A DNA stretch of 64,000 bases from a virus (lineage: Duplodnaviria; Caudoviricetes), in IMG/VR virus record IMGVR_UViG_2931680285_000001, positions 31,011 to 95,010 of that record; one strand, written 5' to 3'. The translations under genes and the position numbers were made by a program. Position 1 is the stretch's first letter. Each line of letters opens with the position of its first letter. Shown here one piece after another: positions 5,758-31,772 of the stretch. The notes under the pieces were generated by a model that saw only the letters and a program-made list of their open reading frames with translations, had not been told where the DNA came from and made no database searches.

Positions 5758-6648
5758 GTGAACGAACTGCGAGTCCTGACCTGGAACATCATGCGGGGGG
5801 AGAACCTGCGCCGCGTGATCAAGCACGTCAAGGACGTCCACCCGGACGTCTGGCTTGCCCAGGAGATTCAACCCAAGCACCACCGGCTTCTCGAACAGAA
5901 GACCGGTATGCGCTGCTACCCGGCGCCGCGCACCGCGAACAGCATCAACGACAACGCCATCTTCGTACGAGAGCGGGACGACAGCCCTCTCGTCGTGGAG
6001 GACGTCTTCGAGCACCCTCTCAACGGTTGGCACCCGCCCGCCAACGTGACCCTTGTTGACGAGCGCTTCCGCACGGAGCACGGCGCCCGCCCCCTCAGCC
6101 TGGTCAGTCACCACCTCTGCTATTTCTCCCCGGATCGACGGCTCGCCGAGGCTGAGTGGCTGACCACCCTGGCCAAGCCCGGCTGGCTGGCCTTCATCGG
6201 CGGGGACTTCAACAGCTACCCCGCCCGCGAGGCCCCGACCGACGAAACGTGGGCGGAAGTCCTGGCCGGGGACCACGCCGACCGCGCGTTCTACACCAAC
6301 CGGACCCTCCTCTTCGGCGAACGCCGGATCAGCGACGTACGCCCCCACAGCACGCTCACCTCGGCCGGATTCGTCGACCTGGCTCTGTGGGCACGCGACC
6401 GCATGGGGCAGCCCTTCGCCGCCGAGCCGACGGCTGGCCACATGAATTCCGCGAGGCAGGGCGGCCAGTGGCGGATCGACTGGAACATCGCCAGTCGCGA
6501 GCTCGCGCCGGCCGTGCTCGATGTCGCCGTCGGGGAAGAGATGAAGCACGTTTCGGACCATCTGCCGATCGTGACCCGCCTCGACCTGGACGCGGTCTTG
6601 GAGAGCATGCGCCCCGCTCTAACGGACTCCCTCGACGCCCAGGCGTAA
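5758..6648 (+). CDS. Endonuclease/exonuclease/phosphatase (EEP) family protein
   Basis: LRVLTWNI, PDVWLAQE, GGDFNS, RIDW, SDHLPI motifs. Confidence 0.9.
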   Translation: MNELRVLTWNIMRGENLRRVIKHVKDVHPDVWLAQEIQPKHHRLLEQKTGMRCYPAPRTANSINDNAIFVRERDDSPLVVEDVFEHPLNGWHPPANVTLVDERFRTEHGARPLSLVSHHLCYFSPDRRLAEAEWLTTLAKPGWLAFIGGDFNSYPAREAPTDETWAEVLAGDHADRAFYTNRTLLFGERRISDVRPHSTLTSAGFVDLALWARDRMGQPFAAEPTAGHMNSARQGGQWRIDWNIASRELAPAVLDVAVGEEMKHVSDHLPIVTRLDLDAVLESMRPALTDSLDAQA

Positions 6649-7599: not shown

Positions 7600-10046
7600 T
7601 GCCGCGCGAGTTCCTGCCTGGGCTTCGTCGCCTCCTCACCTCCCGCCCGGCGCAGGTGGAGGTGGAGGAGAAGTCCGCGGCGATCGGATCGTCGTACGTG
7701 TCGATGACGTACGCCGGTACGACGACGGTGTGGGGCACGGAGAACCGCGGGGCCGGATGGGACCTGGACCGGGTCATCCAAGAGGGCTACGAACGGAGCG
7801 TCTGGACCTTCAAGGCCGTCGAGGCGATCTCCAAGCACCCCGGCGCCCTCAGCATCGAGATCGGACGCGGCGGCGATGACCGGCAGTTCGCCGAAACCCT
7901 CACGGACCATCCCCTGCTGCGCGTGCTGAACGTCCGGGCGAACCCTCTAGAGACGGCAGCCGTCTTCAAGAAGCGGCTCTCAGCGCAGTTCCTGCTCTCG
8001 AAGAAGGGCGCGTTCGTCGAGATCACCCGCTCGCGCGCGGGCATGATCACCCGGCTCGATCTGCTGCCGCCCAACCGGGTCGAGCCGATCCCTGACCCGC
8101 GCGGTGACTACCTCAGCCACTACCAGTTCACGACGTACGACGGCAGAATCCGCGAGCTCGATCCCAGCCGCGTCGTCTGGCTGCGCGACCCCCACCCGAC
8201 CGACCCCTACTGCGGCGTCACCCCGCTCGAAGCCGCCGGTCTGTCCGTCGACCTCGACATCAAGGCCCGGCTCTACAACATCGCCTTCATCGACAACGAC
8301 GCGAGGCCGAGCGGGATCGTGGCCATCGATGTCGACGGGCTGGACCAGCGGGAGATCGACCGCATCCAACAGCGTCTCGCACCCGGTGCGCAGCAGGCGG
8401 GCGAGACCGTGGTCGTCGGCAGCGGGCCGGGCGGCCTCAACTACGTGGACACCAGCACCCGGCCCCGGGACATGAACTACGAGTCCCTGGCCAAGGCGGC
8501 AAAGGACGAGATCTTGAGCGCCTTCGGGGTGCCGGAGAGCATCGTCGGAAACGCGTCCGAGAGGACTTACGCGAACGCGGACCGCGAGGAGTGGAACTAC
8601 TGGCAGCACACCGAGCTGCCGCACCTGGGCCTGATCGCGTCCGCCTTCGACTTCGATCTCGACGACGGCTGGTCGATCCGCTTCGACACTAGCGGGGTCG
8701 AGGCGTTGGAGTTCCCCAGGCGGCAGCGTCGGGCGGAGGCCCGGGAAGAGTGGAACGCCGGTTTGATCACGGCCGACGAGTACCGGGAGATCGCCGGTCG
8801 CCGGCCGTTCAATGTGCCTCACACCCGCGCCCTGTGGATCAGCCCCCAGAAGGCGCCCGTGCCTGCGAGCGAGGCTGACGCTGCCGCGCTCGGCGTTGCG
8901 CAGGACCCCGCAGCCGGTGGTACGCCGGGCCTGCCTGGGGCTGGAGGTCCGCCTGCACGGCCGTCGTCTGCCGGTGCCGGGTCGGCGGCTGCCGCTGTCG
9001 CCGAGCCCACTGGCGCCTCCGGGTCGTCAGCTGCCGAGGACGTGGCGGCGGCAAGGAGCATGCTGGATGCGCCCGCCCTCGGCTCGGCCGCCGAAGACGT
9101 AGTCGCAGCGCGCGAGAAGCACCCGCTTCGGATCGACGGCGAGGCGTCAGCCGACGTGGCGGCGGCCCGCTCCACCGCCACCGCAACGAGCTCGGGGGAC
9201 GCGGCGACGGATGTCGAGGCCGCGCGTACTCCGCTGGAGGGCAAGTCCGCCTCCGGCGGCGGCTACGAGGTCACGGACTCCGATTTCGACACGGCGGTCT
9301 CAGCGGTCACGGCCGTGCTCGCCGCGCTCCTGGCTCGCCAGGAAGGCGTGATCCGGGCCCGGCTGCGCTCTCCGAAGCTGCGCAAGCACACAAGGTACTG
9401 GTCCCCGGACGGAGACACCGATCTGCGCGGAGGGACGGCGGCGATCGACGGTCAGCGCGTCGTCGGTGCTGCCCGCTGGGAGGAGGAGGTGGCCTCCACC
9501 CTTGCTCCGGTCCTTCAGCAGACCGCGTCGTCCACCGCCCAGAAGGTGACCAAGCACCTGACGGGCGCTGGCAGCGTGCCGGCCGGTGCCGCCGCCGCTG
9601 CTCTCACCGCGGCTGCTGTGTCCGGGCGCGCCGTCCTCGCCCTGCTCGCGGATCTGGCTGACGCCCTGGACGCCGCCCAGAACGAGACGACGACCCTCGC
9701 CGATCTCGACGAGGTGATCACCAGCTTCTTCGCGGACCGCGCCGCGCCGTTCATCAGCCACATCGCCGAGTCCTCTGCGGTGACCACCGTGAACGGAGCT
9801 GCCGACGCTGCCGCCGAGAGCATCGGGCCATCAGTCCTGCGTACCTGGGTGACGAGGCGCGACGGCCGCGTACGGCCGCAGCACCAGCAGCTCGACGGAA
9901 TCACCCTGCCCACCGGCACCGCGTTCGAGGTGGACCGTGTCCGCCTGCGCTACCCCGGCGACCCATTCGCCCCAGCTGACCTCACCGCCAACTGCCGCTG
10001 CCGGCTGCGGTACCGCACCGGCCCTGCTCCGAGGGAGACCCCGTGA
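7599..10046 (+). CDS. Phage portal protein fused to C-terminal MuF (minor head) domain
   Basis: HPLLRVLNVRANP, GVTPLEAA, NDARPSGIV, ILSAFGVP, TYAN; C-terminal RTWVTRRDGRVRPQH...YPGDP...NCRC. Confidence 0.9.
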   Translation: MPREFLPGLRRLLTSRPAQVEVEEKSAAIGSSYVSMTYAGTTTVWGTENRGAGWDLDRVIQEGYERSVWTFKAVEAISKHPGALSIEIGRGGDDRQFAETLTDHPLLRVLNVRANPLETAAVFKKRLSAQFLLSKKGAFVEITRSRAGMITRLDLLPPNRVEPIPDPRGDYLSHYQFTTYDGRIRELDPSRVVWLRDPHPTDPYCGVTPLEAAGLSVDLDIKARLYNIAFIDNDARPSGIVAIDVDGLDQREIDRIQQRLAPGAQQAGETVVVGSGPGGLNYVDTSTRPRDMNYESLAKAAKDEILSAFGVPESIVGNASERTYANADREEWNYWQHTELPHLGLIASAFDFDLDDGWSIRFDTSGVEALEFPRRQRRAEAREEWNAGLITADEYREIAGRRPFNVPHTRALWISPQKAPVPASEADAAALGVAQDPAAGGTPGLPGAGGPPARPSSAGAGSAAAAVAEPTGASGSSAAEDVAAARSMLDAPALGSAAEDVVAAREKHPLRIDGEASADVAAARSTATATSSGDAATDVEAARTPLEGKSASGGGYEVTDSDFDTAVSAVTAVLAALLARQEGVIRARLRSPKLRKHTRYWSPDGDTDLRGGTAAIDGQRVVGAARWEEEVASTLAPVLQQTASSTAQKVTKHLTGAGSVPAGAAAAALTAAAVSGRAVLALLADLADALDAAQNETTTLADLDEVITSFFADRAAPFISHIAESSAVTTVNGAADAAAESIGPSVLRTWVTRRDGRVRPQHQQLDGITLPTGTAFEVDRVRLRYPGDPFAPADLTANCRCRLRYRTGPAPRETP

Positions 10047-10335: not shown

Positions 10336-13300
10336 ATGCTGATGCGCACCGCCCCGACCGACCTGAGTCGCACCCTTGAGGCCAAGTCCGTACGACGGCC
10401 GTGGAACTCTGCCCTCCACCCTCGGGACTCGAAGGGCAGGTTCATCGAAACGGGAGGAATTGCCCGCCTTTGGTCGGGCAATCTCGCCCGCGTCGTGCGC
10501 GCCCTGCCTCGCGACCGCGTCCTCGTCCAGGACCGTGCGTCCGACGGCACCTACACGGGACGGCGGCACAGCACCAGCGCCAAGTGGATCACCATGGTGG
10601 CGCGCCCCGACGGCTCCGCGCCGACCGCGAACCAGAAGAAGGTCGAGCAGGAGGACGCCCGCCGGGGCGCCGACGACCGTCGCGGCCTCGGGCTGTCCCG
10701 CGACGACCACGGTGACCCGGACACGCCGGACGAGCCACACGACGTCGACGACGAGGGCAACGCGATCGGCGACGATGAGGGTGACGCGCCGGAGGACGAC
10801 GACCAGGACGAGCCGGAAGACGGCACCCACGACGTCGACACGGACACCCTGCCCAACCGGCAGGCTCTGCCCGGCAGCCGTTTCACGGACACGGCCGCCG
10901 TACGTCGGCACTTCCTGGAGCTGGCCGAGCAGCCCGGCACCAACTCGGCGGCCCTGCGACGTCTCGCGGGCGATGAGGACTTGCAGATCACGCCGACCGG
11001 CGGCCTGGTCACCACCCGCGACGACGCCAACGGCCGCTGGTACCTGACCGCGACCGGCACCGGCGGCTACCTCGACGTCGGCGACTTCTCCAGTCGCAGC
11101 GAGGCGGAGGCCGCCGCCGACTCCATCCACGAGAACGTCCGCAACGGCCACATCATGCCGGGCGAGTTCAACCAGCCCATCGACTTCTCCGACCCGAAGA
11201 TCGGGACCTGGCTCCAGGACTGGCGCTCCACCAAGGGCGAGGGCGCCGAGCAGGCGATCCGCCGTGCGGTCAGCGACTTCCGCGCCTCTCGCCACAAGGA
11301 GGGTTCCGCCTCGCGTCCGAAGCCGGTACGCCAGGCCGCTCAGCCGCGAGGCCGGTTCACCACCCTCCAGCAGGCGCGGGACAACTGGGCCCGGCGTGCC
11401 GCAGACCTGCGGGCCTCCGGAAGCGAACAGGACCGGGCTGCCGCTCGTGCTCTCGACGAGCTGATCAAGGAGCCGCGGCTCAAGCTCGTCGGCGACGGAC
11501 AGTTCGTCACCCACCGCGTGGACGGCGACTGGTACCTGCACGCGACCGGCACCGGACAGCAGATGGGGTGGTGGTTCGACAAGCAGGCGGACGCGAAGGG
11601 CTTCGCCGACCACATCGTTGGCACGCTGAAGGGCAAGGACGGCAAGCCGCTCGACTTCTCCGACCCCGCCTTCGCCGACTACCGGGGCACGTGGCGTTCG
11701 GACAAGGGCCGCGACTACCACCAGGAGTGGACCGCCGCTCGCGCCCTGTGGGACCAGGAGCACCCGCCCAAGCACAGCATCGCCACCGACCGGCTCGCCG
11801 AGACGCTGCGACGCCCGCCGTTCGGCGACCAGCCGACCCCGGACGACAAGGACGAACAGTCCGCTCCGCCGTCCCCGGCACCGGGCAACGACTCCGAGAA
11901 CGACGTCCCGGGGACCGACTCCGGCCAGTCCGAACCTGGCCCGGCAGGCGAGCAGCCGGAGCCGGAGCAGGCCCCCGATCCCGAGGAGGCACCGGAGGAG
12001 AGCGACGACCGGCCGGCAGGCGTGCCCGCCGACGCCGAGCCCGTCGACGGCGTGCCCGGGTACTGGGCAACGTCCTGGAACCCCGGCCCGGTCACCGTGT
12101 ACGGCCCGGACGGCAGCCGGATCGCGTCTGTCGAAGGCGGCTACAGCGACCGGCACGCGACCGTCGACGGCGTACGGCTCCCCATCGGCGGCCACCTCAC
12201 CATCGCTGACCAGATCATCGCCCGCCACCACCTGGCCACCACCGACCCGTCCCAGGCCGACCGCGTCCACCTCGCGTGGACCATGCACAAGACCAAGCGC
12301 GTGGTCGCCGTACGCGGCACCGTCAAGGACGATCCGACCGACGACCGCGCCGTCAACGCGGCCGGCAAGCTCGCCTGGTCCCCGGTGCAGAGCGCGCGGA
12401 TCACCGGCACCCAGTGGAAGCCGGAGACCCGCGACCGCAAGGCCGCCGACATCCTGGCCGCCTTCGTCCGCCAGGGCCGCAACGTCCGCTTCACGGACGA
12501 GACCACCCGCAAGTCCGATGCTCCAGAGCCGTCGCAGCCGCTCGACGAGGAGGACAAGAAGCTCCGCGTCATGTCCGAGACGGACCTGCGCGAGCACCGC
12601 ACCAACCTCCAGTTCCACGCCCAGACGGCACGGTCCCCGCGCAGCAAGCAGCAGGCCCTCAACTCCGTGCGCAAGGTGGAAGCGGAGCTGGAGCGCCGTC
12701 GCGCCGTCGCCGAGGACGGCGAGCAGAAGACCCCTCAGGAGCGTGCAGCGGCCCTGAGCGATGTCGACCTCGCCCAGGCCATCAGTAACTCCGAGCGCGA
12801 GCGCGGCACCTACGGCTCGCGTCGCGGCGACAAGCTCAACGATGACGAACGGGCGCTGTACGCGGACCGCCGCCGCCGCTCCACCGAGCGGATCTCGCGC
12901 GTCGCGGCCCCGCAGGACCTCGACGACGACGCCCTCACCTCGTACATCCAGGACCTGGACCGGCTGAAGCGAGCCCACGACCCGGGCGGTTCGACTCACG
13001 AGGAAGACGACCTTGCCCCCGAGCGCGACCTCTGGGACGACGTCTCTTCCCGGCTCGACGATGCCCTGAAGGAGCAGAGCGAGCGGCAGCTCCGCCAGAT
13101 CGAGCAGCGCCCTCCCGTGCAGGACCTCGACGACGAAGCCCTGGAGGCGGAGGCCGCCAGGCTCCCGGTACGCCTGCCGAAGCTGGACGAGGAGCAGAAC
13201 AAGATCCTCTCTGCCCGCCGCAGAGCGGTGTACGAGGAGCGTCAGAACAGGAAGGCGGGGGTCTACCGGCGCCGGCCCGAGCCCTCCGGCCTCGAAGACG

Positions 13301-16300
13301 GCGATCTCGTCAAGGAGTTCCGCGAGCTCCAGAAGAACCGCAACCTGACATCCGGAGCCGAGCGCGAGGCCCTGGAGGAGCGCCGGCGGGCCATCTTCGA
13401 CGAGCAGAACCGTCGCGGTGCGAAGGGCCACGAGGAGACCGTGCGGCGTGCCGAGACCCGCGAAGACCCGCTGAACGCGCACTACAACATCTCGGTCCGG
13501 GTCGACGGCAACTCTTACGGCGAGGTCTCGTACCACGAAACCGGCTCCACCTGGGCAGGCGGCCCCAAGGCCGGATGGAACGCGAAGACCGACCGGTACG
13601 GGGGCGGCCTGGGCTCCTTCCCGAGCATGGTCGAGGCCCTGGCCGCGCTCGTCGAGAACTACGACACCGACCCCAACACCGAGCCGGTCCGCCTGTACGG
13701 CCGGACCCACCAGGTATGGGTGCCGAAGATGTTCTTCGAGCTGTACCAGTCCTCCCGGCGCGCGGACTCCTTCCCGTCAGCGACCAAGGAACGCCAGACC
13801 CTCTACGGCCGGTTCAAGGGGCACGGCTACGGATGGTCGGACCGCACCAATCCGATCACCGGGAAGATCGGCAAGGGCGCCGTCCTGGAGATCCCTGAGG
13901 GACTGCTCGCCGAGTTCCAGCGGGTCACCGAGGAACTGTCCCGGGAAATGATGCTGCGGTCCACCGACCGCGAGCTGGACTCGTCGGACCGTTCCAAGGC
14001 CCGTACTCGACTGGCCGCGATCAACGCGGCGCTGCACGGCATCGACGCCGCGCGCACGAATGTACGAAAGGATGGCGGGGACGACGACCGCAAGGTCATC
14101 TCCGCCAAGGAGATCGAGGCGCAGCAGGCAGCCCTGCGCGCCGCACTGAGTACGGATGAGAGGGCTGAGGATGAGCATCTACAGCCAGGTGGCCAGGGAC
14201 CACTGGACGAAGCATCTGCCCAGGGAACTGGCGCAGATGGCCGACCCGGAGAAGTTCTTCCTGAGCAAGGGCAGGGAGATCGAGACGGCGATTCTGGTGG
14301 CCGAGGAGGCGCTGGAGAAGACCGTGCCGGCGGCGACGGAGTACGAGCAGCGGGCGGGTCAGCTCAGGCAGATCAGGGCGACCGCGACCGAGATGGTGCT
14401 GCGGGACCTGCTGCCGGAGCCCGAGCCGGAGACCGAGGAGCTGCCGACCCTCACGCCGGAGATGCGGGATCTGCTGGCGATGAAGGACGAGGTGTACGAC
14501 ATGTAGGCCGGTTCCGGCCGGACCCGGCCGACGCCGCGACCCGCGGGCCCGTTCAGCGTGCTGCCGCGAACGTCGAGGCGATCCGGGTCCTGAAGCGGCT
14601 GGAGCAGGAGAACCGTCCGGCCACCGAGCAGGAGAAGCGCACCCTCGCCCGCTGGAGCGGCTGGGGCTCGGTTCCGATCATGTTCGCGTCGGAGCCGAAC
14701 GAGAAGGAGCCGCGCTACCAGCAGGGTGGCGCGCGCTTCGGGAAGTTCACGCAGGACCACGCCCGCTGGGCGGAGTACACCGACCTGCGGGCCATGCTCT
14801 CGAACGAGCTGACGCCGCTGGAGTGGCAGCAGGCTCGACGCGGCACGCTGTCCATGCACTACACGCCTCAGGGCATCGCCGAGGCCATGTGGGACGGCCT
14901 CAAGGCCCTCGGGTTCGAGCGCGGCGACGTTCTGGAGGCCGGGTCCGGGTCGGGCACGTTCTTCGGTGTCTCCCCGCAGGACGCCCGCCTCACGGGCGTC
15001 GAGCTCGATCCGACCACGGCACGGATCGCGAAGGCGATCTACCCGGACGTCAACGTCCTGAACGAGAACTTCGCCGAGACGGACGCCCCGGCCGGAACCT
15101 TCGACGCGTCCATCGGCAACGTGCCCTTCGCCGCTGTCCCCTTCGGCGATAAGCGCTACCCGTCCGAGTCCCTGCACAACGGCTTCGTCACCAAGGAACT
15201 GGCACTGACCCGCCCCGGCGGCGTCACGCTCCTCATCACCTCGCGCCACACCCTGGACTCCAAGGGCGACAAGGCCCGCAAGCAGATCGCGAAGTACGGC
15301 GACCTCATTGGCGCCGTCCGCCTGCCGTCCGGCGTCTTCAGCGACGCCGGCACCAGCGTGGTCGCCGACGTCCTCGTCCTGCGTCGCCGTGCCGACGGCC
15401 AGGAGCCGGGAGACACCTCCTGGCTGAACGCGCCCGAGCGGAAGGTCGGGGACACCCGAGAGCACGTCAACGCCTACTTCGCTCAGCACCCTGAGCACAT
15501 CCTGGGCGACCTCACCACCGAGTCGTCGCCGTACGGCCCGCGCCTGACCGTCAAGGGCGATCCGGGCAAGGCGGCCGACCAACTCCGCGACGCCCTTCGC
15601 GACATCGCCGAGAAGGCCAAGGAGGACGGCCGCGGCTACGAGCCGCACCCCGACGGAGACGACCGCCTTCCCATCCACCTCCAGACCGCCCGCGAGAAGC
15701 ACGCCAACGACTGGACCGGCCGCCTCTACGAAGGCGACGACGGCCAGCTCTACCAGCACGTCAACGGCGGCAACCCCGTCGTAGTCGAGCCGTCCGACGG
15801 CCAGGCCGACCAACTCCGGGCCCTGATGCAGCTCCGCGACGTCGCCGCCGAACTGCGTGTCCTGGACCGCAAGCGGGAGGAGGACGAGCGGGCCGAGAAG
15901 CTGCGTGCCCAGCTTCGCGACCTGCACACCTCGTACGTGCAGCAGTACGGGCCGCTGTCCAAGCCGGGCCAGTTCCGCAGCATGAAGACCGGCGTCCGAG
16001 AGGACGGCACGGAGGAGCGCACCCCGACCGCCTGGGGCTACTTCCGCTCCGACCCCGACGCCGGGTCGGTCCTCGCACTGGAGCGCTGGGACGCGGACAA
16101 GCAGGAGCCGGTCCTCTCCCGCGTCTTCACCGAGCGGGCCGCCGCCCGTCGGCAGCCGCTCGACCAGACCGACGACCCGAAGACCGCCCTGTCCGCGGTC
16201 GTCGCCGCCACCGGCGAGGTCGACCTCGGCGAGATCGCCCGCCTGCTGAACACCGACCCGCAGGACGCCCTGCGGGCCCTGGGCACCGAGGTCTTCACCG

Positions 16301-19300
16301 ACCCGGTCACCGGGCGCCTGGAGCTGGCCGGCGCCTACCTCTCCGGCCCGGTCCGCGACAAGCTCGCCGACGCCCGCCGCGCCGCCGAACGCGATCCTGC
16401 GTTCCAGGTCAACGTCGCCGCGCTCGAAGCCGTCCAGCCCACTGACCGCACGATCGGCGAGTTCACGCCCGAGATGGGCGCGCACTGGACGCCGCCCGAG
16501 CTGCTTCAGGGGTTCCTGCGCGAGTACCTGGGCGACAAGACGCTCCGAGTCGCCCACGACGACCGCTACGGCTGGATGCTCTACACCGGCCAGGTCCCGA
16601 AGGCCAACAACGTCCTGCACGGCGTCGCGGCCAACGAGGAGAAGGGGACCAAGGGCAAGGGTGCGGTCGACATCGCCCGCGCGATCCTCGGCCACGGCTC
16701 GCTGACGATCTACCGCGACGACAAGCGGCGGGACGTCGACGAAGAAACGTCCCGCCTGGTGCGGCAGAAGGCCGACCAGATGCGGTCGGAGTTCGCGAAG
16801 TACGCCACGGCCAACGCCGACCGCCTCACCCGCCTGACCAACTCCTACAACACGATCATGAACGGGCACGTCGTCCGTTCGTACGACGGCATGAGCCCGT
16901 CCCTGGACGGCTTCACCCCGGACCGCGACCCGCACCCGTGGCAGCTGTCCGGCGCCGCCCGCATGCAGTTCGAGCGGTCGGTGATCCTCGCCCACGAAGT
17001 CGGCCTGGGCAAGACCTCCACCCTCGTCATGGGCACCCAGGCCCTCAAGGGCTCCGGACAGATCGAGAAGCCGTTCGCCGTCGTCCCCGACCACCTCGCA
17101 CAGCAGTGGTACGACGAGGCCCGCTACCTCTACCCCAACGCCGAGATCCACCTGATCACGTCGGCCGACCTCGCCGACGGCCGCCGCGACAGCACCCTGG
17201 AGTGGCTCCGCGCCAACAAGCCGGACCTCGTCATCTTCACCGAACCCGCTTTCGGGTCGATCAAGATGAGCCCGGAGGCGCAGGAGGAGTACGAGTTCCG
17301 CGAGCTGGAGGCTCTGCGAGAACAGCTCGACCGGCAGTACGAGGACGCCACCAACCCGAACCACCCGTTCATCGTCGCCAAGATCGAGCAGCGCATCGCG
17401 ACGGTCCAGAACAAGATCAGCAAGAACGCCGCGCCCATGCGCACCCCCGGCGCCACGTACTGGGACGACCTCGGGTTCGACTACGCCGTCGTCGACGAAG
17501 CCCACCGCTACAAGGGCGTCGGCTTCCGCTCCCGTGAGGGCGGCGGCGACCCCGCGTCCATCCGGGGCGTCGACCTCCACCAGAAGCTGACCGACCTGCA
17601 CCGGCGGCGCGCCGGCCGCGCCACCGTCACCCTGGCCACCGGCACGCCGCTGTCGAACTCGATCACCGAGCAGTACACGATGCTCGCCCTGGCCGCCCCC
17701 TGGGTCCTCGACTCCTACAAGGCCGGTGCCCCCGACCTGTGGGCCGCCACCTTCGGCCGCAAGACCCTCCGCGTCGAGAACGCGCCCGACGGCTCGGGCC
17801 TGCGGGTCGTCGAGCGGTTCAGCGAGTTCCACAACAGGCGCGCCATGAAGACCATGTGGGGCCTGGTCGCGGACACCAAGCGCGCCGACGACGTCGGCAT
17901 CCCCCGGCCCAAGATCAGGGGCGGGCAGCCGAACCTGGTCATGGTCGACCCGACCAAGGACCAGACCGCCCGGCTGAAGAAGCTGGTCGCCCGTGGCCGC
18001 GCGATCCACAACGGCGAGGTCGACCGCTCCCAGGACAACATGCTCGCCGTGTCCAACGAGGGCACATCCGTCGCCCTGGACCCGCGGCTCGTCGACGCCA
18101 AGGCCCCGGCCGGCAAGAAGCTCGCCGCCGTCGCCGCCCGCCACGTCGAGCGCTACCACCAGCACAAGGACCGGGTCTACAAGACCCACTACGGCAGCAC
18201 GGAGGACCACCCGGTCCCCGGCGCCCTCCAGATGATCTTCCTCAACGAGGGCGTCCCGGGCGGCAACAACCGAGGCGACTTCGACGCGTACGCCGAACTG
18301 AAGCGACTCATGGTCCAGGGCGGCATACCCGCCGACAAGATCGCCTTCGTCCAGGACGCCAAGAAGTCCGGCAAGCCCGAGCACCTGGCCGAGCTCTTCC
18401 GCCGCGCCCGGGACGGCGAGGTCTCCGTCCTCATCGGCTCCAGCAGCGTCGCCGGCACCGGCATGAACGCGCAGAACCGCATGGTCTCCCTCACCCACGT
18501 GGACCTGGACTGGGGCGCAGCGCAGATGGAGCAGCGCAACGGCCGCATCCTGCGCTACGGCAACCAGAACGACGAGGTCGAGGTCGACATCTTCGCGACC
18601 AAGGGCAGCCTCGACGGCTGGAAGGCCGGATTCGTCGCCTCCAAGGCGGAGGGCCTGGTCGACATCCAGCGCCCTGAGATGGCCGACAGCGACACCCGCG
18701 ACACCGTCACCGAACTCGACGTCGACTACCCCGACTACGAGACGATGGAAGCGGAGATCGGCGGCAACCCCTACATGAGCCAGCTCATGAAGGCCCGCCG
18801 TCAGCTGCGTGACCTGGAGATCGACCAGCACAACGAGGCCGCCGAACGCGTACGGCGCGCCGAGGCACTGGCAGAGCTGGAGCAGGAGACCGCCGACACC
18901 CGGGCCGGCATCACCCGCCGCGAGGCGGCGCTGCCCCGCATCCGCGACGTACGCGGGACCTTCAGCATGGCCATCGGCGGCATGCCCTACACGGAGCGCG
19001 CCGACGCGGCGGCGGCCCTGCACCGGCAGGTGACCACCCAGCTCCTGGACCACGCCCACGAGGGCGTGAGCCCGTGGAAGACCGTCGGCCAGCTCGGCGG
19101 CCTGGACGTCGCCGTGCGAACGGAACGGCGCGCGGACGGGAAGCTCGTCGCCCATGTCGGCTTCCCCGACCTCGCCCGTTCCAGCTTCGAGCGCACCCCG
19201 GACGACCTGAAGAAGCGCGGCGCCGGGTCGGGCATGATCACCCGGCTCGCCAACGCGTTGGAGAAGGCCCCCGCCCTCCAGGAGGCCGACCGGCGGCGGC

Positions 19301-28354: not shown

Positions 28355-30283
28355 GTGCCGACCGCGCCCGCGCCCCGCGCGCCTGCGTCACGTAAGGGCA
28401 TCTGCCGCGCCATTTTCGCCGTGACCGGAGTCGTCGACGAGGTCGCCGACTTGATCGTTCCGGGAGCTTTCGCGCACACCCTGGCGACCAGACCTGTGAA
28501 AACGGTTTGGCACCACGCGTGGACGGACCCCATCGGCGTGGTTCTGGAGATCACCGAGTGGCGACCGGGCGATGCGCGGTTCGCCTCGATTCCGAACTGG
28601 CCGGCGGAGGCCGGGGCGCTGGTCGCGACCATCCAGTTCAACCTGAGGACCCAGCGGGGCCGCGACGTCTACGAGCAGGTCCGCCAGTGGCACGAGCACG
28701 GCGAAGCCCAGTTCAGCATCGGCTACCGCGTGCCCCCGAGCGGAGCCACGAAGCGGTCGGACGGGGTTCGGGTGATCCACAAGCTCGACCTCTACGAGGT
28801 CTCCCCCGTCCTTCATGGCGCGCACCCGATGACCCGGTCCTTGGAGGTCAAGGCCGATGGTGGCGCCACGGAGTTGGAGCACAAGACGACAGCGGGCGGG
28901 CACCTCGACTTCAAGGCCGCCGAGCGGCAGGTTGGTCGCGGGGCGATGGTCGCGCTGTACGTGCCTGGCGAGATCGCGGGCAGGATCGCCCACCCGGACG
29001 GCACCTTTGCACGGGACCTGCACATCACGCTGGCCTATCTCGGCGACGCCGAGCGGCTTCCCGGCCACCCTGACGACCTCGCCGACCTCGTGGCCGCAGC
29101 CCTTGAAGGCGCGAGCCCCGTGGAGGGGAAGATCGGGGGGATCGGCCGGTTCCCGGACACGGGCGACGGCGAGCCGGTCTTCGTGCCGGTCGACGTGCCG
29201 GGGTTGGCGTCGCTGCGCCAGCGGATCGTGGACGCGATCGAGTCGTCCCCGCTCGCTTCCTCGCTGAACGTCGACCACGACTTCACGCCGCACATCACGC
29301 TCGGGTACGGCCTGCCGCTGGACACCGTGCCCACCCCGTCCATCCCGGTCGCCTTCGACACCGTGCACGTCGTACGAGGACCGGACTCGACTCCCATCCG
29401 CTTGCTCGGCCCTCTCACTGCCGATGCTCACACCGAGCCGACCGTGACAGAGCCACGTTTCGCCTCTCCGGCCCCAGCTGAGGAGAAGTCCGCGCACCAG
29501 GCCGTCCGCCAGGCTCTGGCTGCGCCCCGCTGGGCCCGCGCGAGCGCCCACGCCGCCGTCCTCGAAGCCAAGTCCCGTATCCCCACAGGAGTTCCCGTGT
29601 CGCCTCTCCAGCCTCTTCCCGCCTCCTACGAGGACATCCGCGAGCAGGTCAGCGATGCCGTCCACGGCCTGCTCGCCTCTGAGGACGGCACCTGGTGCTG
29701 CGTCGAGGCGACCTACCCGGACCGGGTCATCGTCTCCGTCCACCAGGGTGACTCGGGCGCTCGAACCTACGCCGTCCCGTACAGCATGTCCGGCACGGAG
29801 ATAGCCCTCGAAACGCCCCAGCCCGTCGCGCTGGCCACCGTGGTGATCCCCGACGAGGGATCGGTACGCCCTGCCGACAGCGCCGAGACAGCCGACAGCC
29901 TCCTCGTCCGCCCCACCCTGCGCGCGCTCGCGGAGGCGACCTCCCGCGTCCAGGCCGCGGACGCCTCTGAGCAACTGGAGCCCGTACGGGCCTCGGTGAG
30001 CAGCCTCCTCAGCGCCCTGTCCGCCAAGGGCCTCGACCTCACCGCCGAGGACGATGAGGAAGGCCCTGTCGGGGAACGGCTCCCCGCCAGCGGCTCGGCA
30101 GCCGTGGCCGGCAACGGCATCGACCTGTGGGACGACCCATACGACGAACCTCACGATGTCGACGAGGACGAGGACGAGTCCGAGAACGGCGACAACGCCG
30201 AGGAAGAGGTCGACGAGATGGGCGCGACCGTTCATCTCGACGCGACAGAGGTAAAGGCGCGCCTGGCCGCGATCCAGCTCTAG
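28355..30283 (+). CDS. HK97-type prohead protease fused to 2H phosphoesterase (2'-5' RNA ligase/Acb1-like) domain and acidic C-terminus
   Basis: VDEVADLIVPGAF, VWHH, PIG, FSIGY, LYEVSPV; two HxT motifs LHITLAYLG (29021) and FTPHITLGY (29291). Confidence 0.85.
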   Translation: MPTAPAPRAPASRKGICRAIFAVTGVVDEVADLIVPGAFAHTLATRPVKTVWHHAWTDPIGVVLEITEWRPGDARFASIPNWPAEAGALVATIQFNLRTQRGRDVYEQVRQWHEHGEAQFSIGYRVPPSGATKRSDGVRVIHKLDLYEVSPVLHGAHPMTRSLEVKADGGATELEHKTTAGGHLDFKAAERQVGRGAMVALYVPGEIAGRIAHPDGTFARDLHITLAYLGDAERLPGHPDDLADLVAAALEGASPVEGKIGGIGRFPDTGDGEPVFVPVDVPGLASLRQRIVDAIESSPLASSLNVDHDFTPHITLGYGLPLDTVPTPSIPVAFDTVHVVRGPDSTPIRLLGPLTADAHTEPTVTEPRFASPAPAEEKSAHQAVRQALAAPRWARASAHAAVLEAKSRIPTGVPVSPLQPLPASYEDIREQVSDAVHGLLASEDGTWCCVEATYPDRVIVSVHQGDSGARTYAVPYSMSGTEIALETPQPVALATVVIPDEGSVRPADSAETADSLLVRPTLRALAEATSRVQAADASEQLEPVRASVSSLLSALSAKGLDLTAEDDEEGPVGERLPASGSAAVAGNGIDLWDDPYDEPHDVDEDEDESENGDNAEEEVDEMGATVHLDATEVKARLAAIQL

Positions 30284-30467: not shown

Positions 30468-31772
30468 ATGGCTGAGAGCAAGTCCCTGATCAACAACCTC
30501 CGCCAGCAGCTCGCCGAGAAGTCGGCGGAGGCCGAACGAATCAGCCGCACCTTCAAGGTCGAGGACAACGGCGGCTTCGTCGTTTCGACCGAGCAGGCCA
30601 CGGCCTTCAAGAAGATCTCCAACGAGGCAATGGAGCTCAAGCAGCTCCTCGCCGACGCGGAGGGTATGAGCGAGGTGAAGCAGTACCTCGACGAGCCCGA
30701 CGGCCCGTCCTCCGCCGGGCAGTTCTACGGCCAGCAGCCCGCGCACGGCGGCATGGAGGGCAAGAGCCTCGGTGACCTGTTCGTCGAGAGCGACGCGTAC
30801 AAGAACGCGGCCCAGGCCGGCTTCCGTGACCGCCCGTATGTGAGGGCGGAGATGGAGGGGAAGTCGATCTTCAGCCTGTCTGGCGGCACCGTCACGCACC
30901 AGACGCTCGGGTCCGCGCAGAACCTCGGGATCGCCGAGCGCGAGTACCGCAAGATGCACATTCGGGATCTCTTCCCGAAGAGCTCCACCAAGCAGTCCGT
31001 CCTCTACGGAGCCCGCGAGACCGGGTGGACCAACAACGCCAAGCAGGTGAAGGAACGTTACGGCGCCGACGGCTCCAGCCCGGCGACCGGAGCGGACACC
31101 GACACCTGGGGCCGCGCACCGCGATCGAAGCTGGCCCTAGTGCCTGTCATGTACCCGATCAGCGAAATTGCCCATCTGCTCGACGCGCATAAGAATATTC
31201 TTTCCGACGAGCCGCGACTGAAGACATTCATTAACTCTCGAATGGTTGAGGGTGTGAAGTATCAGGAGGACTGGGACCTCCTGCACTCTGTCGGTGACGG
31301 CCAGTCCCTGACGGGCATCTTCAACACGCCCGGGGTCCAGCAGTACCGAGGGCTCGCGACCGACAAGTACAGCGTGCAGATACGCCGCAGCATCACCAAG
31401 GCGCTGCTAGCCGAGTACGACCCCACGGGCATCGTCCTGTCTCCGACGATGTGGGAGCACGTGGAGGTGGAGGAGGACGACACGGGCGCTTTCCGCGTCG
31501 CCCTCCAGATCGCGGTCGGCGCGACCAAGCGCGTCTGGAGGCTGGACGTCGTCGAGACGACCGCGATGGCCGACGAGCAGTTCCTCGTGGGCGCCTTCGG
31601 TCTCGGCGCCCAGCTCCACGACCGGGAGTCCGTCTCTGTCACGGTCAGCACCGAGAACGGCGAGAACGTGGAGAAGGGCTTGGTGACGTTCCGAGCGGAC
31701 GAGCGGGTCGCGCTCGAAATCCCTCGCCCGGAGAGCTTCGTGATCGGCACCTGGACCGCTCCCGCCGGCTGA
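30468..31772 (+). CDS. Major capsid protein (HK97 fold)
   Basis: KSLGDLFVES, IRDLFP, IAHLL, GDG..LTGI, RVWRLDVVET, FRADERVALEIPRPESFV. Confidence 0.9.
   Translation: MAESKSLINNLRQQLAEKSAEAERISRTFKVEDNGGFVVSTEQATAFKKISNEAMELKQLLADAEGMSEVKQYLDEPDGPSSAGQFYGQQPAHGGMEGKSLGDLFVESDAYKNAAQAGFRDRPYVRAEMEGKSIFSLSGGTVTHQTLGSAQNLGIAEREYRKMHIRDLFPKSSTKQSVLYGARETGWTNNAKQVKERYGADGSSPATGADTDTWGRAPRSKLALVPVMYPISEIAHLLDAHKNILSDEPRLKTFINSRMVEGVKYQEDWDLLHSVGDGQSLTGIFNTPGVQQYRGLATDKYSVQIRRSITKALLAEYDPTGIVLSPTMWEHVEVEEDDTGAFRVALQIAVGATKRVWRLDVVETTAMADEQFLVGAFGLGAQLHDRESVSVTVSTENGENVEKGLVTFRADERVALEIPRPESFVIGTWTAPAG

Follow-up and report, generated by a model that had tools for sequence, protein, structure and literature searches.

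Complete genes that are embedded in another gene on the same strand are a known class of overlapping genes. In phage lambda, the spanin gene Rz1 lies completely in the +1 frame of the same-strand gene Rz, and both products are made and work together. In Bacillus subtilis, the comS gene of 46 codons is located out of frame within srfAB; it is confined to Bacillus and is functionally unrelated to the surfactin synthetase. To our knowledge, very few same-strand overlapping bacterial genes of at least 100 codons have strong evolutionary support. Here we describe a pair of this class for which the comparative support is unusually strong. It is located in a 64,000-nucleotide stretch (positions 31,011 to 95,010) of the IMG/VR virus record IMGVR_UViG_2931680285_000001, and the whole of this stretch is referred to as the window. 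At positions 14171-14506 of the window, a small gene for a TnpV-like protein (P0001) is embedded in the +1 frame of a giant open reading frame (ORF) that encodes a methylase-helicase protein. We consider this part of a prophage head-module gene to be truly dual-coding, so that a single mRNA region yields two proteins, and give this reading a probability of roughly 0.8.

As with Rz and Rz1, the small gene of the window is wholly embedded, in the +1 frame and on the same strand, in a phage gene. However, Rz1 overlaps a folded and constrained part of Rz, whereas the host frame in the window is a drifting, disordered spacer (ratio of nonsynonymous to synonymous divergence [dN/dS] of 1.13; predicted local distance difference test score [pLDDT] of 20-25). 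Unlike Rz1, the TnpV-like gene also occurs on its own and seems to be the older of the two coding frames, and the pair has been kept across phyla. As with comS and srfAB, a giant multidomain gene contains a small one that has its own start and runs on the same strand in another frame. In contrast to comS, TnpV-like genes have 84-200 codons, are found in several phyla, and occupy a fixed place before one domain.

The host gene also has described counterparts. The DarB protein of phage P1 is a virion-packaged anti-restriction protein. The methylase-SNF2 helicase dyad of the 'polyvalent proteins' was described by Iyer et al. 2017 (PMC5512222), and the main text of that paper gives as the prototype a protein of 12,242 aa from a plasmid of Streptomyces viridifaciens. 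The host gene in the window shares with the polyvalent proteins, as the main text presents them, a giant multidomain product, an N6-methylase followed by an SNF2 helicase, and carriage by phages or plasmids. The prototype may be the 12,453-aa giant coding sequence (CDS) of the S. viridifaciens plasmid pKVP1 (locus L017), which likewise carries the nested gene. A term search of the main text of PMC5512222 returned no mention of TnpV, overlapping or frameshift, and in our literature searches no polyvalent or DarB-like gene was described as harbouring a nested gene.

An earlier, sequence-only reading of the window had proposed that the giant frame stays open just before the methylase domain and becomes a low-complexity linker with atypical third codon positions, and that the +1 frame there has typical codon bias, a purine-rich element upstream of ATG 14171, and a helical 111-aa product. 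All of these features were found. The giant frame reads through the small ORF as a peptide rich in G, D, R and A, and the conserved N-terminus of the methylase module follows directly. In a frame-specific plot of the G+C content at third codon positions (GC3), calculated in 120-nucleotide (nt) segments from 12800 to 16069, the giant frame had values of 0.74-0.97 except in the segments starting at 14150, 14240, 14330 and 14420. In these four segments the giant-frame GC3 fell to 0.41-0.49, while the third position of the +1 frame reached 0.90-0.97. The G+C contents of the small ORF at codon positions 1, 2 and 3 are 0.65, 0.38 and 0.96. Since the giant ORF contains 43 same-strand, alternative-frame ORFs of at least 80 codons in DNA of 70% GC, the length of the small ORF alone is not unusual. 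However, the nested ORF is the only one of the 43 that pairs a high GC3 of its own (0.94) with a low giant-frame GC3 (0.40); the values for the runner-up were 0.86 and 0.84. Similarly, the 90-codon segments with a giant-frame GC3 below 0.65 (n=14) all start between 13996 and 14386, and all overlap the nested ORF.

The translation start of the nested gene was compared across 48 loci of the family. The conserved N-terminus of the protein coincided with a start codon in every one (31 ATG, 16 GTG, 1 TTG). A Shine-Dalgarno-like (SD-like) 4-mer preceded this start in 45 of the 48 loci, against a background rate of 0.17, and an SD-like 5-mer in 36, against a background rate of 0.06. Four close relatives, which are 78-82% identical, have a GTG start at the position of ATG 14171 and not at that of the upstream ATG 14156. 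As for the other end of the gene, the stop codons in 45 loci were TAG in 38 (the window gene among them), TAA in 5 and TGA in 2; TGA is the usual stop in high-GC actinobacteria.

These data bear on programmed ribosomal frameshifting, in which the small frame would be a domain joined by a +1 shift from the N-terminal module or by a -1 shift into the methylase. The two frames are one base apart on one mRNA, and frameshifting is common in mobile elements, both of which count for such a mechanism. However, a TGA codon interrupts the small frame 8 codons ahead of ATG 14171, the conserved N-terminus is always at a start codon with an SD-like motif before it, and free-standing homologues of equal length exist. 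A slippery heptamer of the X_XXY_YYZ type was absent from the small frame in 15 of 17 scanned loci and none was conserved, no homopolymer run was present near the small start in 16 of the 17, and Rfam gave no match at E<=0.1 within 13500-15200. Furthermore, a giant frame without stops along the full length of the small gene would not be needed for frameshifting. We regard this explanation as very unlikely. An error of sequencing or assembly, in the form of two compensating indels, was ruled out, as the same frame relation is found in dozens of independent records.

The two frames differ in predicted structure and in selection. The AlphaFold2 model of P0001, made with a 20-sequence alignment, had a pLDDT of 89.6 overall and of 93-98 at residues 1-80, with predicted helices at residues 3-15, 17-21, 26-49, 58-80 and 96-109. 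In the model of giant-protein residues 1179-1690, the flanks were folded, with helices at model residues 12-96 and a pLDDT of 84-94 at 230-320, while the overlap (model residues 101-212) had no secondary structure. The block-mean pLDDT was 20-25 at residues 101-210, and the whole 91-223 segment was below 50. A comparison of dN/dS in the two frames, which had been suggested as a check, was made with Nei-Gojobori counts summed over 51 close pairs from 26 Streptomyces loci. In the overlap, the small frame had a dN/dS of 0.50 and the giant frame one of 1.13; in the flanks, the giant frame had values of 0.38 on the N-terminal side and 0.21 on the methylase side. Synonymous divergence in the small frame (0.23) was lower than in the flanks (0.34-0.39), which is expected if the other frame holds some silent sites. 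The contrast in dN/dS together with the coil model indicates that the small frame carries the amino-acid information and that the giant frame needs only an uninterrupted spacer.

To what extent the open giant frame departs from chance was estimated for each locus with a null model in which the small protein is fixed and synonymous codons are drawn from the codon usage of the methylase gene, giving P(open). Of 22 plasmid loci, 20 were fetched; H6 and H17, which resemble near-duplicates of H5 and H16, were left out, and the duplicate loci L029, L056 and L057 were dropped from the counts. Of the 45 loci in which the small gene is succeeded by the methylase motif, 44 had a stop-free giant frame, and the exception (L021) had 9 stops. 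Among 12 homologues with no methylase motif after them, 7 were closed and 5 open, the latter being three truncated remnants, one locus at a contig end and one upstream tandem copy. Locus L023 (G268), which ends at the contig end, was counted only among these 12. P(open) was 0.07-0.73 for Streptomyces loci, with 0.31-0.73 for the plasmid loci among them. Any single high-GC locus is therefore uninformative. Lower values were obtained for Arthrobacter (0.035-0.046), Ruania (0.012-0.036), Microbacterium (0.001-0.002), locus L025 (0.028) and L027, an actinobacterial contig of 47% GC (0.001). When loci were grouped into 15 clusters by single linkage at 40% identity and the largest P of each cluster was taken, the product was 10^-11.7 without the three low-GC plasmids described below and 10^-42 with them; relatedness makes these products approximate. 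The openness of the giant frame across the small gene therefore goes far beyond the synonymous-codon null, and the conservation of both frames that had been named as a check is present.

The annotated relatives show the same arrangement. In all 12 Streptomyces plasmid loci with an annotated giant CDS (3,400-12,453 codons), the small ORF lies inside it in the +1 frame and has an ATG or GTG of its own at the conserved N-terminus, a GGAGG-like sequence ahead of this start and a separate stop codon. A few codons past that stop, the giant frame enters the conserved N-terminus of the methylase module (RFRPDPAD...ANxxAIxVLK...WSGWG). The small gene is unannotated in all 12 of these records, in agreement with the proposal that gene callers would miss it. 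Two of the giant CDSs, of 10,905 and 12,453 codons on the linear plasmids of S. chartreusis (L015) and S. viridifaciens (L017), carry the annotations 'UvrD-helicase domain-containing' and 'DUF6349 family'.

Annotated free-standing homologues are found in Nocardioides, Pimelobacter, Microbacterium, Micromonospora, Arthrobacter, Ruania and S. microflavus, and in all of these except Ruania they are recorded directly before SNF2/methylase genes. The statement in the sequence-only reading that such small proteins occur beside actinobacterial SNF2/methylase genes was therefore accurate. Six loci carry an annotation of two genes, but their methylase frame has no stop for 700-950 nt upstream of the start assigned by the Prokaryotic Genome Annotation Pipeline (PGAP). 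This frame spans the entire small gene, with the frame relation unchanged, and opens with a short conserved leader peptide located ahead of the small gene. PGAP starts these leader-bearing genes too far downstream, so that the leader is lost. In terms of annotation as a whole, PGAP omits the small gene in the 12 Streptomyces plasmid loci and in Brucella, Clostridium, Listeria and Campylobacter loci, and trims the N-terminus of the methylase-helicase in seven loci (Ruania, Nocardioides, Pimelobacter, Microbacterium, Micromonospora, Arthrobacter and a Pseudomonas aeruginosa plasmid). Annotation pipelines forbid long same-strand overlaps, which makes the gene pair invisible in the records examined. 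On non-Streptomyces actinobacterial plasmids (L004, L014, L016, L018, L019 and L020), the leader that opens the methylase-helicase ORF has 40-70 aa and is conserved (for example, L020:5808-6000). The leaders carry one or two Q..L(D/S)L(W/F) motifs, such as QGEFDLWG and GQLSFDDFW, which we take to resemble the bacterial beta-clamp-binding motif QL[SD]LF.

The only locus with separate genes was the S. microflavus plasmid NZ_CP108576.1 (L021). Its small gene occupies 5995-6483, and the TGA of this gene overlaps the ATG of a 9,682-codon methylase-helicase gene that begins at 6483; the 9 giant-frame stops lie across the small gene. The frequency of T at third positions is 0.17 in the small gene and 0.016 in the big gene. 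This locus is relevant to the possibility that the window contains three ordinary genes (for an N-terminal protein, a TnpV-like protein and a methylase-helicase) and that the 5436-codon ORF is a high-GC artefact in which stops are absent by chance. In favour of this possibility, the -1 frame of the small gene would seldom make stops at 70% GC and with a GC3 of 0.96, many Streptomyces loci have a P(open) of 0.4-0.7 and the window has one of about 0.3, and L021 truly has separate genes. However, the frame is closed in precisely this one locus, while the 44 open loci include DNA of 25-47% GC in which the chance of openness is 1e-14 to 1e-3. In addition, the upstream module has no stop codon in the window or in the 12 plasmid loci with a giant CDS, and no start for the methylase module is present ahead of its conserved N-terminus. 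After the small start, the first ATG, GTG or TTG in the giant frame is 174 nt past the small stop, within the conserved region, so that the methylase module can be made only by ribosomes that come from upstream. The giant ORF is one gene and not two genes flanking a third, and the three-gene explanation is barely credible.

The nested arrangement was also found outside the actinobacteria. When the methylase N-terminal module of L027 was used as a tblastn query, 1264 plasmid records matched, with 209 from Campylobacter, 159 from Agrobacterium, 81 from Rhizobium, 58 from Rhodococcus, 50 from Enterococcus, 33 from Listeria and others; the matches include genes annotated as N-6 DNA methylase or SNF2-related. 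Five of the 1264 records were inspected, together with a Brucella plasmid that was found with the L027 small protein. In the Clostridium botulinum plasmid p05/025 (25% GC), a 118-codon +1 ORF lies inside an annotated SNF2-related CDS and encodes a full-length TnpV (PF14198, 86.1 bits, E=2e-24, full profile); P(open) for the giant frame was 4e-12. In Listeria pLM6179 (38% GC), a nested +1 TnpV gene of 114 codons (29 bits) lies in an SNF2-related CDS, with a P(open) of 7e-6. Bona fide TnpV genes are thus nested at the same place, ahead of the same methylase module, in Clostridium and Listeria plasmids. In a Campylobacter coli plasmid (28% GC), a nested ORF of 158 codons, for which Pfam gave no match, lies directly before the methylase motif, with a P(open) of 1e-14. 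In a P. aeruginosa plasmid, an annotated 101-aa gene is traversed by an open methylase frame (P(open) of 0.05). In a Brucella pseudintermedia plasmid, a 105-codon +1 ORF lies within a 4953-codon 'PLxRFG' CDS (P(open) of 0.013), and the host-frame GC3 falls from about 0.68 to 0.40-0.44 at the nested ORF; a tblastn search of plasmids with this nested protein found only itself. Our data indicate that the nested arrangement is ancient and spans phyla.

The results from these phyla also address the possibility that only the giant protein is made. The TnpV-like frame would in this case be a silent remnant that dates from an ancestral operon and was trapped by the fusion of the genes on either side. 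The only moderate selection on the small protein (dN/dS of 0.50) and the lack of a called small gene in the 12 plasmid records with a giant CDS are compatible with a relic. On the other hand, the start, the SD-like sequence, the open frame and the GC3 bias are all kept where the small proteins are only 22-40% identical, dN/dS in the small frame is less than half of that in the host frame, and the Clostridium nested ORF still matches the complete PF14198 profile. When the giant peptide was held fixed instead, the probability of an open +1 frame in the three low-GC loci was 0 in 20000 (Clostridium), 0.008 and 0.0004. A silent relic is therefore distinctly unlikely. In the dual-coding region, a whole ORF lies within another on the same strand in a different frame, and both frames are conserved. 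Neither frame is interrupted there, the small frame is the one that codon usage and amino-acid selection follow, and the giant frame is kept free of stops by selection; from this evolutionary pattern, we infer that both products are translated.

Homologues of the +1-frame product were found by both profile and tblastn searches. The profile search of 1.84 billion representatives gave 1296 clusters at E<=0.001, of which 751 reached E<=1e-10, and each of the best 150 of the 1296 matches was a small protein of 90-303 aa. With tblastn, P0001 matched 22 actinobacterial plasmid records and had no match in 50,697 phage records. Two samples of 401 genomes each were also searched in six frames; the family was present in 27 genomes of the sample drawn from the same genus and in 7 of the sample drawn from the whole phylum, and both counts include the window's own genome. 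A Foldseek search with the small-protein model gave no match at E<=0.001 in PDB or BFVD.

The sequence-only reading had likened the small protein to TnpV. This likeness stands as a distant relationship, supported by the shared nested niche and by sub-threshold matches of relatives, while membership of the Pfam family does not. PF14198 was the only recurrent family among relatives and was always below threshold: it matched 5 of 10 relatives at 14-25 bits (best 24.6) and, in a larger set, 22 of 76 at E<=0.01 (best 1e-05), all under the 27-bit cut-off. An alignment by hhalign of the 76-sequence family profile with the Clostridium plasmid TnpV had a probability of only 42% (E=2.6e-4, 82 columns); it paired the N-terminal YG...(H)W/L...P motif and the C-terminal AEE.VL.E.V helix. 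In a protein atlas, the nearest clusters were auto-named 'TnpV protein family' with scores of 0.90-0.92, and in PHROGs the single match was that of one relative to phrog_24764, of unknown function (E=6.7e-4). A six-frame search with PF14198 gave no match in the window's own genome and likewise none in 14 control genomes, which makes this negative uninformative. P0001 is best described as TnpV-like, a divergent actinobacterial branch that is distantly related to the TnpV of Tn4451-type transposons and Firmicute conjugative elements. Both are small (about 110-120 aa), helical and borne by mobile elements, but canonical TnpV, which was once likened to an excisionase, has an N-terminal extension of about 25 residues that the window protein does not have.

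Some loci of the family depart from the common layout. Four (L045-L048; G706, G627, G730 and G672) form a subfamily of 171-174 aa with a conserved C-terminal extension and no methylase module after it, and the -1 frame of these genes has 2-6 stops. Three others (L024, L043 and L044; G295, G553 and G639) have two tandem TnpV-like paralogues about 600 nt apart. The upstream copy, of 107 aa, has no methylase module after it and a closed -1 frame in 2 of the 3 loci, and the downstream copy, of 90 aa, is nested, with a leader no longer than 288 nt before it. In L002 (S. hirsutus plasmid, 9001-9330), L034 and L054, only the small gene and the first methylase codons (RFRPDPAN...) are left before an IS5 transposase or a stop is reached. 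These truncated remnants indicate that the small gene can outlive the giant gene.

The giant gene of the window, which has 69.6% G+C over its 64 kb, belongs to a prophage head module (Table 1). The gene order is portal and MuF gene, giant gene, S78 prohead protease and 2H gene, and major capsid gene, and the portal gene has a Phage_portal match of E=4.8e-50; the portal, protease and capsid neighbours place the giant gene in the head module. Phage head genes flank the giant gene in the window, and its relatives are located on plasmids near type IV secretion system and partition genes. The giant protein matched SNF2-rel_dom (27.9 bits) and Helicase_C (23.9 bits), both over the family cut-offs, as well as ResIII. 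The helicase-core matches correspond to residues 821-1370 of the segment beginning at 14506. Its methylase matches were weak (Eco57I, Pfam, E=0.08; Erm, NCBIfam, E=2e-5), and the GSGSG and NVPF methylase motifs are invariant columns in the module alignment. One polypeptide thus has an N6-methylase-like region followed by an SNF2 helicase. The N-terminal module has a GC3 of about 0.9 in the giant frame, and its last ~100 aa are kept among Streptomyces relatives. Pfam and NCBIfam gave no family for the 1278-aa and 2048-aa flanking modules, and Pfam gave nothing for seven N-terminal modules of relatives. A virion-packaged anti-restriction role like that of P1 DarB is a candidate function, in favour of which are the head-module position and the domain pair.

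Table 1. Features in and around the dual-coding region (window positions).
Feature	Position	Strand	Details
Portal ORF, 836 aa	7536-10046		Directly before the giant gene; MuF-like C-terminal domain (Phage_Mu_F E=1.5e-5, under cut-off)
Giant ORF, 5436 aa	10336-26646	+	DarB-like polyvalent protein of prophage head module; from ORF list and Pfam
N-terminal module of giant protein, 1278 aa	10336-14169	+	No known family; no stop codon of its own
Shine-Dalgarno-like purine tract of nested gene	14158-14170	+	GAGAGGG at 14158-14164 and GAGG at 14167-14170, abutting the ATG
Giant-frame linker, 112 codons (giant residues 1279-1390)	14170-14505	+	Joins N-terminal module to methylase module; no stops
Nested TnpV-like gene (P0001), 111 aa	14171-14506	+	+1 frame of giant ORF; ATG 14171 to TAG 14504-14506
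Conserved N-terminus of methylase module	14509-15405	+	RFRPDPAD...ANVEAIRVLK...ARWSGWG, then GSGSG and NVPF motifs
SNF2-type helicase core	16966-18615	+	Pfam SNF2-rel_dom/ResIII/Helicase_C and NCBIfam DrmD/DpdE-like C-terminal helicase
Prohead protease gene	28355-30283		Peptidase_S78 fused to 2H phosphoesterase / 2'-5' RNA ligase-like domain

Several observations weigh against the dual-coding reading. In the window alone, an open giant frame is not improbable, with a P(open) of 0.29-0.37, and the case rests on the other loci. These loci and the 51 pairs are mutually related, which makes the pooled figures descriptive and not formal tests. The small protein is fast-evolving and under purifying selection that is only moderate: its dN/dS is 0.50, and in the closest pairs the differences per site at small-frame codon positions 1, 2 and 3 were nearly equal (0.026, 0.030 and 0.056). 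P0001 itself had no match in Pfam (E<=0.1) or NCBIfam and did not reach the gathering threshold of PF14198 (27 bits), so that it is not a member of that family. Finally, nesting is not obligatory, as L021 demonstrates, and a homologue of the methylase module on an Agrobacterium Ti plasmid had no nested ORF.

If the region is dual-coding as we propose, ribosomes starting at ATG 10336 would read frame 0 straight through the overlap. In this frame the overlap would serve as a disordered spacer of 112 residues, whose sequence may drift freely as long as it has no stops. Through the spacer, the N-terminal module of 1278 aa would be connected with the N6-methylase/SNF2-helicase dyad in a DarB-like polyvalent protein of the anti-restriction type. 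Other ribosomes would initiate internally at the SD-like site and ATG 14171 in the +1 frame, yielding the mostly helical TnpV-like protein of 111 aa that ends at the TAG at 14506. The pair probably originated from an operon with a leader or N-terminal gene, tnpV and a methylase-helicase gene, in which the outer genes fused via the -1 frame of tnpV, and L021 would represent the un-nested state.

The sequence-only reading had also suggested that the small protein may regulate or partner the methylase-helicase. The small gene is always directly before the methylase module, whether nested or free-standing, and this conserved linkage leads us to suggest tentatively that its product may be a dedicated accessory of the module, such as a chaperone, an adaptor or a regulator. 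A bolder and rather doubtful proposal is that nesting itself is a device. TnpV would then be an obligatory accessory of the dyad (a chaperone, an adaptor for packaging or transfer, or an inhibitor), its synthesis would be set by traffic in the giant frame, and the module would have been kept since before its spread among Bacillota, Actinomycetota, Pseudomonadota and Campylobacterota. In this coupling, ribosomes crossing the linker would open or occlude the internal Shine-Dalgarno site. If this proposal is true, the level of the small protein would follow the level of the giant one, and few same-strand overlapping gene pairs known in bacteria would be as old or as long.

In terms of the origin of overlapping genes, the findings suggest a simple route in which two genes fuse across a third, which is then read in an alternative frame as a disordered spacer. 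The loci, including the un-nested L021, also form a clean natural data set on selection in two frames at once. For the orphan TnpV family, the methylase-helicase dyad of anti-restriction polyvalent proteins becomes a single, defined candidate partner, which makes the function of TnpV testable.

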